Source of the DNA: Candidatus Sigynarchaeum calidifontis
Lineage (GTDB): Archaea; Asgardarchaeota; Lokiarchaeia; Sigyniarchaeales; Sigyniarchaeaceae
Length of the DNA: 44,086 nucleotides
Direction: 5' to 3'
Assembly: GCA_030587475.2 (NCBI GenBank)
Contig: JAUQYZ020000024.1
Location: 1 to 44,086 of the forward strand
Positions 1,168 to 4,851 of the stretch are shown piece by piece; the first letter of the stretch is position 1; each line of letters opens with the position of its first letter. Under the pieces are notes generated by a model. The model worked only from the letters and a program-made list of their open reading frames with translations. It was not told the DNA's origin and searched no databases. Both the position numbers and the translations under genes were made by a program.

Positions 1168-1683
1168 TCAATCGAGCGTGATGGATTCCTCGCCCCGGTA
1201 CAACGCGAGCACGCCGGAGCGCGCGATCTCCTTGATATTCGCGATCTCGGAGATGAGCTCGATGAACGAGTTGACTTTCCGCTGCGTGCCGACGATCTCG
1301 AGCGTCATGGTCTTGGACGTGACATCGATGACCTTGCCGTTGTAGATGTCGACGAGGGTCATGATCTCTTGCCTCATGTTATTGTCCTTGACCACGACCT
1401 TCACGAGGGCGGATTCGCGCATCGTGGTTTTCGACGGTTCGAGGTGCTGAACCTTCACGATGTCGATGAGCTTGTGCAATTGCTTGATGATCTGCTCGAT
1501 GGTCGCCTCGTCGCCCTCGGCCATGATCGTGATGCGGGAGAAGCCCGGGCGCTCGCTGTGCCCGACCGAAATGCTACTGATGTTGAAGCCCCGGCGAGCA
1601 AACATCCCCGTGATCTTCATCATGACGCCCGGATGATCGTAGACGAGCATCCCGATGCATACTTGCTGGTTTTCGTTTGTCAT
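1168..1683 (-). CDS. ilvN: Acetolactate synthase small (regulatory, ACT) subunit
   Basis: DHPGVMMKITGMFARRGFNISSISVG and EIARSG motifs; SD GAGGTGA precedes the ATG at 1683; follows ilvB. Confidence 0.95.
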   Translation of the reverse strand: MTNENQQVCIGMLVYDHPGVMMKITGMFARRGFNISSISVGHSERPGFSRITIMAEGDEATIEQIIKQLHKLIDIVKVQHLEPSKTTMRESALVKVVVKDNNMRQEIMTLVDIYNGKVIDVTSKTMTLEIVGTQRKVNSFIELISEIANIKEIARSGVLALYRGEESITLD

Positions 1684-1704
1684 GCGTTCGTTCACCTCTT
1701 TATC

Positions 1705-3576
1705 TCATAACTCGTCCTCGAAGAACACGGCAACGTCGTCCTCTTCCTTTTTAATTCGTTCCACCTTGTATCCTTGCTGTTCCGATTCGGTCCGGGGGAG
1801 CCGGCAATACCAGTCATAGATCGACTTCTTTTCCTTCCGCCTGCTGTAGAACACGTTCAGTGCACCGCCGGGATGGAGCATGGGCAGGATGTTCGACTCG
1901 GGCTCGATCATCATCTCGATGATGCACGTCTGATCCGCCTTTTTGGCCTGCTCGAGCGCGCCGGCAACCTGCTCCGGCTTCTCCACGCGGATGCCGGGAA
2001 GCCCGTAGGCATCGGCAAGTTTCACGAAGTCGGGGTAATACTTGCCGTCTTTACAGCCGAGGCACGTGTATGCGTACCGCTTCTCGTAGAGGATTTCTTG
2101 CCACTGGCGGACCATGCCAAGATACTGGTTGTTCATGACGATGATGTTTACCTTGATGTCGTTGTTCTTCACCGTCGCGAGCTCGTGAAGGTTCATTTGG
2201 AAGGATCCATCCCCCGCGACGATCCAGACTTCTGAGCCCGGCTTGGCGACCTTGGCACCGATTCCTGCAGGGAACCCGAAGCCCATGGTACCTAGCCCGC
2301 CGGACGAGATCCAGGTCCGCGGTTTCCTGATGTTGAGATAGTGCGCCGCGAACATCTGTGCCTGGCCGACCTCGGTCACGACGATGTCGTCGGTGGCGAG
2401 GATCTTGTTGAGCTCGAACATGACCTTCTCGGGAATGACCCGGCCTGTCTTGCCGGGTTTTATCGCGTCTGGGATACCGCTGGATTCCTTTAGTTCCTTG
2501 ATGTACTTGTACCACCACGAACGGGTCGTCCCGTTTTTCTGATCGGCGATGCGCCGCTTGACTTGGTCGAGGAACTCTTGCAGCGCTAGCTTGAGATCCG
2601 CCACGATCGGCACGTCGACTGGTACATTCTTGCCGATCTCGGCGGTGTCGATATCGACGTGGATGATCTTCGCAGATGGCTGCCCGGGGAAATGTGCCAG
2701 GTCCCCGGTGATCCGGTCGGAGAACCGCGTGCCCAACGCGAGGATCGCGTCTGCCTCGGAGACCGCGAAGTTCGACCGCTTGCGGCCGTGCATGCCGAGC
2801 ATGCCGAGCACGTACGGGTGGTCATCGCTGATCACCCCCTTGCCCATGAGCGTGTACACGACGGGGATGCGGAGCAGGTTGACCAGATCCTCCAGTTCCT
2901 TGCTAGCATTGGCAAGCGCGACACCGCCCCCCGCGATGATGACCGGATATTGCGCGTTGAAGAGGATGTCGAGGGCTCGCTTGATCTGGAGCGATGCACC
3001 CTTGGAAAAGACTCGAGGATTGTAGGACACGAGCTCGATCTTGTCGGGAATGGGCTCGGCCAAGGTGGTCTCGGCAACCTGCACGTCGCGCGGGAGATCT
3101 ATGAACACAGGGCCTGGACGTCCGGTCGTGGCGATGTACGCCGCCTCCTTGAAGACCCGCCCGAGCATGTTCACGTCCTTGACCTGGTAGTTTTGCTTGG
3201 TGACAGCCATGGTACAGCCAACGACATCCGCCTCCTGGAACGCGTCGTTCCCCACGAGCCACGTGGAAACCTGGCCCGAGAAGGCAAGCACGGGGCTGCT
3301 ATCATAATATGCATTTGCCAGGGCAGTCACGAGGTTCGTCGCCCCCGGCCCGCTGGTCGTCACGCACACGCCGAGCTTGCCCGATGCCCTTGCAAAACCA
3401 TCGGCCGCGTGGCCAGCGGATTGCTCGTGCCGGACAAGGATCATGCGAATGTCATTTTCGGCATAAATGCGGTCAAAGAACGGCATGATCTGGCCGCCAG
3501 GATAGCCAAAGAGCGTGGTATTTTTCGTGTCTTTGAGAAACTTGACGATGATGTCCGTTCCGATAATGGTTATCAC
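1705..3576 (-). CDS. ilvB: Acetolactate synthase large subunit
   Basis: FGYPGG, RHEQSAGHAADG, TSGPGATN, SGGLGTMGFG, ThDP motif GDGSFQMN...NNQYLGMVRQWQ. Confidence 0.97.
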   Translation of the reverse strand: MITIIGTDIIVKFLKDTKNTTLFGYPGGQIMPFFDRIYAENDIRMILVRHEQSAGHAADGFARASGKLGVCVTTSGPGATNLVTALANAYYDSSPVLAFSGQVSTWLVGNDAFQEADVVGCTMAVTKQNYQVKDVNMLGRVFKEAAYIATTGRPGPVFIDLPRDVQVAETTLAEPIPDKIELVSYNPRVFSKGASLQIKRALDILFNAQYPVIIAGGGVALANASKELEDLVNLLRIPVVYTLMGKGVISDDHPYVLGMLGMHGRKRSNFAVSEADAILALGTRFSDRITGDLAHFPGQPSAKIIHVDIDTAEIGKNVPVDVPIVADLKLALQEFLDQVKRRIADQKNGTTRSWWYKYIKELKESSGIPDAIKPGKTGRVIPEKVMFELNKILATDDIVVTEVGQAQMFAAHYLNIRKPRTWISSGGLGTMGFGFPAGIGAKVAKPGSEVWIVAGDGSFQMNLHELATVKNNDIKVNIIVMNNQYLGMVRQWQEILYEKRYAYTCLGCKDGKYYPDFVKLADAYGLPGIRVEKPEQVAGALEQAKKADQTCIIEMMIEPESNILPMLHPGGALNVFYSRRKEKKSIYDWYCRLPRTESEQQGYKVERIKKEEDDVAVFFEDEL

Positions 3577-3612
3577 GTCCCGTGGTTCATGATGCTCGAT
3601 GCAGCATAAATA

Positions 3613-3663
3613 GCATGGTGGTCGCGCAAGAGGAAGGAGGAGGATTGCGCGAGCCGATCATGC
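3613..3663 (-). promoter_or_regulatory. Putative attenuator hairpin between leader peptide and ilvB
   Basis: Minus strand reads GCAUG-AUC-GG-C-UCGCGCAA [loop UCCUCCUCCUUCCUC] UUGCGCGA-CC-AC-CAUGC then UAUUUAU; the stem overlaps the leader stop codon. Confidence 0.65.
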
Positions 3664-3738
3664 GATGACCAGGATACCGATAATTACGAGCACGACAAGT
3701 ACATGCACGGTTACCAGGGATATCGGTATTCTCATCAT
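3658..3738 (-). CDS. Putative ilv leader peptide MMRIPISLVTVHVLVVLVIIGILVIA (26 aa)
   Basis: Manually translated; 6 Ile + 4 Leu + 7 Val; SD AGGAAGGAG at 3753-3745; ends 81 nt before the ilvB GTG. Confidence 0.8.
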   Translation of the reverse strand: MMRIPISLVTVHVLVVLVIIGILVIA

Positions 3739-3779
3739 TGCAGTCTCCTTCCTTAGACCAAGCTAATAAGGACATGCGG

Positions 3780-3786
3780 TTTTAAA
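3780..3786 (-). promoter_or_regulatory. TATA-like box of leader-ilvBN transcript
   Basis: TTTAAAA about 42 nt upstream of the leader ATG, placing the inferred TSS near 3755. Confidence 0.55.
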
Positions 3787-4050
3787 TGCTTGCGGTTATT
3801 CGGACTTGAAGCCGAGGACGTTCATGGACGCATCGAGGGCGATGGCCCCGGCATGTTTTTTCGTGGAAAAGGCTTCGTTTTCGGGGCATTGCAAGAACTC
3901 GGTTTCCGTACACGTTTCGATGGTAAACGGCACCTCGATCGCGGCTTGATTGCCGACCCTGGCATCACGGGGCTTTCCAACATCGAACCGGGCCATGCTG
4001 GTGAAGCCCAAGTGCCCCGACCCGCCCGCCACGGAAATCAGCCATCATCG

Positions 4051-4851
4051 TTACTTGGCCAAGACTTTGAACGCCCAATAATGCAAGCGCATCGGGCCTG
4101 TCGATTTTTCCTGCTCGCCTCTTTGGTATATCGTCGTGAACCCCGTGTACAAATTGTTGCTGACCACGGCGTGAATCGAGGGGTCGTGGAAGAGAACATT
4201 CATCTCCGCGGTGGACAACGGCTCGTCATGGTCGATGTTCACGAGGCCAGGGCCTTGGAAGGCGCTCCTGGCGAAGGGAAAACTGACGCGGCGGAAGTCG
4301 CCCAGGTACTTCTGGCATGCCTGTCCCGCAGCCCCGCCAATGGTCTCATCGCCGGGAAGGAGTAAAATACTATGAGGCGACGCGAAGATGACCGTCGCAG
4401 CGGGCCCTCCTTGATTCTCGTCGGGGGCAATCCGTGCGCGTGCAGGACCCGCTGCGAACGCGAGCAAGTAGTAACCTTCGCCGATGCGAACCGTGCATTG
4501 CGGCGCGATACCCGTTTCCCAGAACGAATCGCGGCGGATGGTGGACAGCGAGTCCACGCGGAACTGGATCCCGGCCTTGCCGAACGGCAAGGAGACTCTC
4601 TCCATGTCCTCGAAGAATTGTCGCTGGCGCTCGATTTCGGCTCGGATCCCTGGTTCGATGGAAGAGGCAGGCAGATCGATGGCACCCTTGAGGGAAGAGA
4701 ACATCTCATCGTAAGCCTCCTTGGCGGCACCGAGATAAAAAGCTTCATCGATGGGCTCCCGCCGGTAAACGTCGATGGCGATTGCTTTGGAAATCTCGGC
4801 GATCGCTCGCACGAACCCGAGGCGTGCGGTAGCGTCGGCATCATCCGCCAT
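4051..4851 (-). CDS. Hypothetical protein (266 aa)
   Basis: ATG-started ORF with protein-like composition; no family recognised. Confidence 0.7.
   Translation of the reverse strand: MADDADATARLGFVRAIAEISKAIAIDVYRREPIDEAFYLGAAKEAYDEMFSSLKGAIDLPASSIEPGIRAEIERQRQFFEDMERVSLPFGKAGIQFRVDSLSTIRRDSFWETGIAPQCTVRIGEGYYLLAFAAGPARARIAPDENQGGPAATVIFASPHSILLLPGDETIGGAAGQACQKYLGDFRRVSFPFARSAFQGPGLVNIDHDEPLSTAEMNVLFHDPSIHAVVSNNLYTGFTTIYQRGEQEKSTGPMRLHYWAFKVLAK

Follow-up and report, generated by a model that had tools for sequence, protein, structure and literature searches.

Leader-peptide control is the textbook form of transcription-translation-coupled regulation and is treated as a bacterial invention. 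In the enterobacterial systems ivbL-ilvBN, ilvL-ilvGMEDA and leuL-leuABCD, a short ORF rich in codons for the pathway products lies just upstream of the structural genes, an RNA structure starts at the end of this ORF, and the composition of the leader is matched to the product operon by operon. In translational attenuation of the ermC/cat type, a leader ORF and ribosome stalling act through alternative pairings involving Shine-Dalgarno (SD) sequences, and the drug is sensed through the nascent peptide. Two actinobacterial systems are closer still. The ilvBNC operon of Corynebacterium glutamicum has an Ile/Val/Leu-rich uORF before ilvB that was recognised by its conservation across the taxon, and three hairpins including a terminator were proposed and mutated there (PMC11857589, PMC10272879). 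In mycobacterial polycysteine leaderless sORFs, stalled ribosomes are reported to block an mRNA duplex that otherwise sequesters the ribosome-binding site (RBS) of the next gene (10.1101/834739). Our full-text search across a corpus of about 8.4 million articles and preprints returned no archaeal leader-peptide attenuator and no occurrence of the phrases "archaeal attenuator" or "attenuation in archaea".

Here we describe a candidate system of this kind in a window of 44,086 nucleotides (the whole stretch of DNA analysed, contig JAUQYZ020000024.1) from Candidatus Sigynarchaeum calidifontis. A preliminary description of this DNA, made from its letters, had assigned it to an Asgard-type archaeon, and a eukaryote-type actin (PF00022, 436 bits) bears this out. 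It had also named the genes ilvB and ilvN. The acetolactate synthase large subunit gene, ilvB (1705-3576, minus strand; GTG start, 623 aa), matches TIGR00118 with 708 bits against a cut-off of 538, and the small subunit gene, ilvN (1168-1695, minus strand), contains the Pfam domains ALS_ss_C and ACT_AHAS_ss. The latter is the last gene of the unit and is followed by a convergent gene.

Upstream of ilvB, on the same strand, we found the ORF reported earlier at 3738-3658, with the peptide as first given: 26 codons plus TGA (3660-3658), 17 of the 26 specifying Ile, Leu or Val (ILV). It is absent from the gene calls. Codons 8-25 (3717-3664) form an ILV run in which 15 of 18 positions are ILV and which ends one codon before the stop, and the stop is separated from ilvB by 81 nt. 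As in the enterobacterial systems, a short, product-codon-rich and here putatively translated ORF thus lies just upstream of the operon, and an RNA structure starts at its end. The Asgard leader differs from them in that its ILV run reaches the last or second-to-last codon, and in that it has an archaeal TATA promoter. The TATA-like box for the leader-ilvBN transcript, ATTTAAAA, is present at 3787-3780 (minus strand), as had been described, and is kept in a second genome of the same genus (G001; the present genome is G000) and in L162, one of six metagenome relatives (L162-L167). TATA-like boxes in relatives were read by eye 24-27 nt 5' of the leader 5' region. The predicted transcription start site is at about 3760-3755, which would place the SD at the extreme 5' end of the leader RNA. 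This SD, AGGAAGGAG (3753-3745, minus strand; element E1), lies 6 nt 5' of the ATG, is invariant in G001 and L162, and is complementary to the genome's own 16S 3' end (...GGATCACCTCC). Sequence-level evidence for leader translation consists of the SD and the ATG, both downstream of the TATA-like box.

The next upstream gene on the minus strand ends at 3798-3796. This gene (3796-4851) is without a Pfam match; a frame of 266 aa ends at a TAA (4053-4051) that is followed by one codon, a TGA (4047-4045) and a further frame of 78 aa, whose product resembles the C-terminal part of a G001 protein. Disruption of one gene, a pair of separate genes and an error in assembly would each fit this arrangement.

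Short ORFs are abundant in any genome, and an ILV-rich one could arise by chance in a stretch rich in T at second codon positions. All 66,858 ORFs of 12-60 aa in the 4.99-Mb assembly were therefore scored by ILV content per 12-residue window. Only two reached 11 of 12, and the leader is one of these; the other is situated within long ORFs. The next-best intergenic ILV-rich ORFs precede genes for a peptidase S15, an Hsp20, an RHH protein, an ATPase and a lactamase-fold protein, all of them unrelated. Since the other top-ranking ORFs are either internal or before unrelated genes, the genome's single best ILV candidate is the one directly preceding the matching operon. A chance ORF that ranks first or second genome-wide, falls within 150 nt before the sole matching operon (a rough expectation of at most 1e-4 from the small-ORF counts) and recurs at every orthologous locus is barely credible. 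No ILV-run leader was found before the other branched-chain amino acid genes of this genome (three leuA/cimA-like, ilvC and three ilvD-like genes). A conserved ORF of 63-70 aa does precede a cimA/leuA-like gene in G000 (contig C129, about 64 nt upstream) and at the G001 locus L156; its hydrophobic tail includes F, A, M, S and T and so differs from an ILV run. When the whole genome was searched for leaders rich in another single amino acid, 171 matches were obtained, mainly R-, S- and F-rich frames, none of which was recognisable by eye as a leader.

Orthologous ilvB genes (67-88% identity) occur in nine other species genomes of the order, representing, with the present one, two families and seven genera. 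The uORF expected before ilvB in relatives is present in all ten orthologous operons of these seven genera, a count that comes from related genomes and hence not from independent samples. Wherever the region upstream of ilvB is free (8 of 8 cases, 7 besides the present genome), it holds an ORF with 9-12 ILV per 12 residues that ends 42-97 nt before ilvB. In genomes G025 and G017, ilvB follows cimA (TIGR00977, 559 bits), and the leader precedes cimA instead (L144:1300-1410 and L145:1060-1170). Five of the six metagenome relatives (L162, L164, L165, L166 and L167) also have an ILV leader. The exception is L163, whose ilvB is 86% identical: its leader frame at about 1100-1200 is short, F-rich or interrupted by TAG, and a hairpin with an anti-SD loop and a T5 run are kept there, while a complementary SD is not evident. 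This state might reflect decay, a T7 run misread in sequencing, or a variant leader. Between genera, neither the nucleotide nor the peptide sequences of the leaders can be aligned; what is kept is position, the C-terminal ILV run and the translation signals. By comparison, among 20 paralogue loci of the same order that served as a control set, two reach at least 9 ILV per 12 residues, both about 300 nt from the gene.

Contigs were also scanned with a profile from the ilvB alignment; the matches listed, all with at most 50% identity, were used as controls and outgroup. Among them, the same leader scan recovered classical bacterial attenuators with terminators (L081 and L073). No ILV-run leader was detected in other Asgard orders with ilvB (L111-L128). 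Among the matches listed, ILV-rich short ORFs were found in two Archaeoglobaceae loci, L062 (about 1380-1464) and L047 (about 1400-1464), ending 30 and 24 nt before ilvB, respectively; ILV leaders are therefore not confined to Asgard archaea. A recent import of ilvB and leader from bacteria was considered and rejected on the basis of the ilvB tree (FastTree, local supports only), which places the ilvB clade of the order (support 100) inside a group of other ilvB genes from Asgard archaea and Bathyarchaeota (support 99). Among 400 genomes sampled from the phylum, only 25 have the canonical gene (E at most 1e-120), indicating that branched-chain synthesis by this enzyme is patchy there; in the order's largest family (135 genomes) no canonical ilvB is present, and all copies there are paralogues of about 34% identity.

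Small proteins with a single helix are widespread and frequently go unannotated, and the tail of the peptide is strongly hydrophobic (mean Kyte-Doolittle value of 3.3 over 16 residues), so that the ORF might instead encode a small membrane peptide with a function of its own that is merely co-transcribed with ilvBN. Composition of the peptide was compared with the 993 most hydrophobic 16-residue windows in long ORFs of the genome. These transmembrane (TM)-like windows contain 58% ILV, about 25% F+A+M+W and at most 1% charged or polar residues. The last 16 residues of the first ten leaders contain 79% ILV, 2.5% F+A+M+W and about 6% D/E/R/H/K/N; at least 13 of 16 residues are ILV in 6 of the 10 leaders versus 12 of the 993 TM-like windows. 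The leader tails thus lack the composition of a membrane helix, in which F, A, M, G and W are tolerated and core charges are absent. Within the genus, changes between G000 and G001 in the middle of the peptide are non-conservative, including changes to D, E and S, and the two genomes are identical in the SD, in the codons at either end of the ORF, in the hairpin arm and in the pyrimidine loop.

Composition also tracks the product of the enzyme encoded downstream. In genome G031, the leader before leuA (L147, ending at 1323) has nine Leu, one Val and no Ile in its last 12 residues, and the leader before cimA (L160, ending at 1363; cimA by TIGR00977) has seven Ile, two Leu and no Val. Both lie in the same gene row as a mixed leader before ilvB, with six Ile, four Leu and three Val in its last 16 residues. 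In the two leaders that precede cimA-ilvB, Ile occurs 9 times and Val is absent. The operon-by-operon matching seen in enterobacteria is therefore repeated here, and such product-matched composition is what a codon-reading sensor, and not a membrane peptide, would predict. A generic TM micropeptide was the outcome that would have counted against the original proposal. Near exclusion of F, A, M and W, charged residues inside the run in relatives, the lack of any residue position conserved between genera, the match to the product, and the occurrence of the ORF only beside ilv/leu genes all speak against it, and we regard a membrane peptide as very improbable.

The RNA downstream of and around the ORF is structured. 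Hairpin H (3655-3620, minus strand; 5' arm 3655-3645, loop 3644-3630, 3' arm 3629-3620) consists of a GC-rich 10-bp stem that carries a 15-nt loop of pyrimidines, and begins 3 nt past the stop; four outer pairs (CATG/CATG) reach into the stop codon, in agreement with the GC-rich hairpin overlapping the stop that had been noted before. Its energy of -15.2 kcal/mol (z -3.9) was equalled by a single one of 200 shuffled sequences. In G001 and L162, a hairpin with an anti-SD in its loop occupies the corresponding position; its counterparts in L163 and L164 also have the anti-SD loop, on a different stem (GCGGTA/TACCGC). The minimum-energy fold of 3760-3615 has -47.7 kcal/mol (z -3.1 versus shuffles). 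It contains a predicted inner leader helix (3730-3673, minus strand) in which codons 3-6 (3730-3720) pair with codons 19-22 (3684-3673); both arms are conserved in G001, and in L162 the helix, as read by eye, is kept with G-U pairs.

Within the loop of H lies a second element that the preliminary description had missed, E2 (3639-3631, minus strand; +19 to +27 past the stop), whose sequence, CTCCTTCCT, is an anti-SD and the exact 9-nt complement of E1. In minimum-energy folds E1 and E2 pair, closing the whole leader into a rod, and in these folds the local hairpin and the long-range rod are competing structures. The E1:E2 helix extends to 11 bp in both G001 and L162. Helices of the same type, 7-11 bp long and joining the 5' UTR or SD to sequence at or just past the stop, are present in relatives with genus-specific sequences (GGAGCCAATCT in L007, GGAGTCAATT in L005, AGGAGTCTA in L164 and ACTACGAGT in L009). 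Because leaders of different genera are not alignable, duplex energies were used in place of alignment covariation, each leader being compared with windows of its own locus. The p values for single leaders were 0.004-0.07, with the exception of the leaderless L006, and the combined value (Fisher) was 7e-7 with one leader per genus and 3e-10 with the first ten leaders, for genomes that are related and not independent. For the present genome alone, p was 0.07, marginal against local windows, so that the case for E1:E2 here rests on the comparison. Position of E2 differs among lineages. In the AT-rich ones it is found between -18 and +17 relative to the stop, a zone that a terminating ribosome would reach or nearly reach, and in the present genus its position is about +18 to +32, just past this zone and in the H loop.

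Such stable RNA (z -3.9 for H and -3.1 for the whole leader), together with the better conservation of RNA elements than of the mid-peptide within the genus, could also point to a structured non-coding leader with a protein, tRNA or metabolite site, in which the ORF is incidental. Rfam gave no gathering-score match in the whole window and none even at E at most 1 in 3480-3860. Moreover, genera with unrelated leader RNA retain an open frame containing an ILV run, which a non-coding element would not require. We consider this explanation very improbable. The conserved Asgard helix, which joins the leader's own SD to the post-stop region, is unlike the 1:2/2:3/3:4 set of enterobacterial attenuators. 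The putative self-pairing SD/anti-SD architecture is the distinctive part of this system. With ermC/cat-type attenuators it shares a leader ORF, ribosome stalling (inferred here) and alternative pairings involving SDs, and it differs from them in that conservation concerns the codon composition and does not extend to the sequence of the peptide.

The preliminary description had gone further and likened the layout to bacterial ilv attenuators. On that account H or a later structure would be an intrinsic terminator and a stalled ribosome would favour an antiterminator, as in E. coli ivbL-ilvBN. The leader-and-hairpin anatomy such a mechanism calls for is present. However, as far as is known, intrinsic termination in archaea needs a U-tract rather than a hairpin, and no run of at least four T occurs between leader and ilvB (3657-3577) in the present genome or in the corresponding regions of G001 and L162; a terminator scan of 3657-3577 gave no terminator-like site. 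The bacterial terminator model therefore lacks its defining feature at this locus, and the layout departs from the bacterial one in having no hairpin plus U-tract terminator and a hairpin loop that is an anti-SD to the leader's SD. With neither a T run nor a terminator-like site, the 3' end predicted near 3605-3612 finds no support in the sequence. The C. glutamicum leader shares with the Asgard one the ILV-rich uORF before ilvB; the Asgard leader is without a terminator and is described from its sequence.

Elsewhere the picture is more mixed. Of 14 leaders, 8, each belonging to an AT-richer genome, have a T5-T6 run +21 to +37 past the stop; the run directly follows the analogous hairpin in L164 and lies within 4-6 nt of a hairpin in L009 and L165. 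In the Archaeoglobus locus L062, the leader stop is followed by a small hairpin, a T6 run and then the ilvB SD. Termination may thus be part of the mechanism in other lineages, although T5 runs are common by chance in AT-rich spacers. For the present genome, we consider attenuation of the bacterial type unlikely.

The mycobacterial polycysteine sORFs are reported to share with the Asgard leader an amino-acid-sensing sORF that acts without a terminator (10.1101/834739). They are the best analogue for the SD/anti-SD/SD layout of L007, L010, L164 and L165. In these four leaders and in L009 the post-stop element pairs with the ilvB SD (p 0.004-0.045), and a duplex sequestering the ilvB RBS is found there in outline. 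No such duplex was found in the present genome, and the post-stop region showed no complementarity to the ilvB start region in the present genus (p about 0.8; 0.86 in the present genome). Compared with the polycysteine sORFs, the anti-SD of the present genome pairs with the leader's own SD and not with the ilvB start region. When a ribosome mask was placed at each of the last 16 codons in equilibrium folding, accessibility of the ilvB start stayed flat at 0.33-0.39. Because these masks had no consistent effect, an RBS-unmasking mechanism is not claimed for this genome. An 11-bp pairing between stop-proximal sequence and the ilvB start, read in G001 and L162, was dropped since it is not kept in the present genome. 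Read-through of the leader TGA into ilvB was also set aside: the frame is open here and in L162 (81-nt spacer), but the spacer of G001 is 88 nt, and we take the open frame as coincidence.

Two blocks in the spacer are conserved. One of 16 nt around the ilvB start (3588-3573, minus strand) is identical in G000, G001 and L162; the GTG at 3576 lies in it, as does an imperfect extended SD. The other, ACCATGCT (3619-3612), is identical in the same three and holds an ATG opening a short second frame whose length differs among them; sequence between the two blocks varies freely. In L004, L007, L008 and L010, the stretch from the in-frame stop to the conserved ilvB N-terminus contains no ATG, GTG or TTG, so that these genes must start at ATT (or ATC), situated 6-7 nt 3' of a strong SD (e.g., L007:1498 and L010:902). 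In the window, an ATT at 3567-3565, situated 9 nt downstream of the GTG (3576), is the aligned counterpart of the ATT start in these relatives. A weak AUU start of a regulated ilvB may be part of the control, and AUU starts in several relatives are ones that standard gene callers would mis-annotate. The earlier statement that no second TATA lies before ilvB holds in part: a TATTTAT at 3612-3606 (minus strand), about 30 nt before the ilvB GTG, is a possible second TATA-like box and could serve as a separate ilvB promoter in the present genome, and it is not found at the aligned position in G001 or L162.

We consider it likely that the ORF at 3738-3658 encodes a leader peptide acting in cis, through which ribosome speed reports the supply of Ile, Leu and Val. 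What stands of the initial proposal of a translated ILV leader sensing supply for ilvBN is its presence in relatives and its unlikeness to a TM peptide; what does not stand is the bacterial-attenuator layout. We infer that the leader is translated, that ribosomes stall in it and that ilvBN expression rises on starvation. In the mechanism we propose, the leader transcript would begin a few bases before the SD, and a ribosome would load and translate the ILV run ending one codon before the stop. E2, presented in the loop of H, would then pair with E1, the leader's own SD. Once E2 has been transcribed and E1 is free, the leader would close on itself and further loading would be blocked, and this SD/anti-SD closure would restrict the leader to essentially one co-transcriptionally loaded ribosome. 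The position of this sensing ribosome, either stalled in the run or finished and released, would decide the pairings around E2 and H, and these in turn would set the amount of ilvBN made. Candidate readers of the state of H and E2 are a termination factor, an RNase and an initiating ribosome at ilvB; output in the present genome may be by factor-dependent termination, mRNA stability or translation by another route. In sister lineages E2 can in addition pair with the ilvB SD, and the resulting three-part SD/anti-SD/SD switch would act on translation. In the present genus, judged by complementarity, the pairing of E2 with the ilvB SD cannot form, and hence such a switch cannot operate.

The full form of this reading is put forward tentatively, as possible rather than probable: that Asgard archaea of this order use a terminator-less, amino-acid-sensing uORF, independent of that of bacteria, in which SD/anti-SD self-closure lets one pioneer ribosome set ilvBN expression through exposure of the anti-SD, with the ilvB SD joining the switch in relatives and a weak AUU start perhaps sharpening it.

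If true, this would give archaea their first documented case of metabolite control mediated by the ribosome, and it would be found in the closest prokaryotic kin of eukaryotes. As a conserved, product-matched element, the Asgard ILV leader offers a concrete and mutable object for testing whether archaeal ribosomes sense amino acid supply in cis. It bears on whether such control needs coupling to RNA polymerase and on what may substitute for the bacterial terminator, and it also bears on the origin of eukaryotic uORF control.
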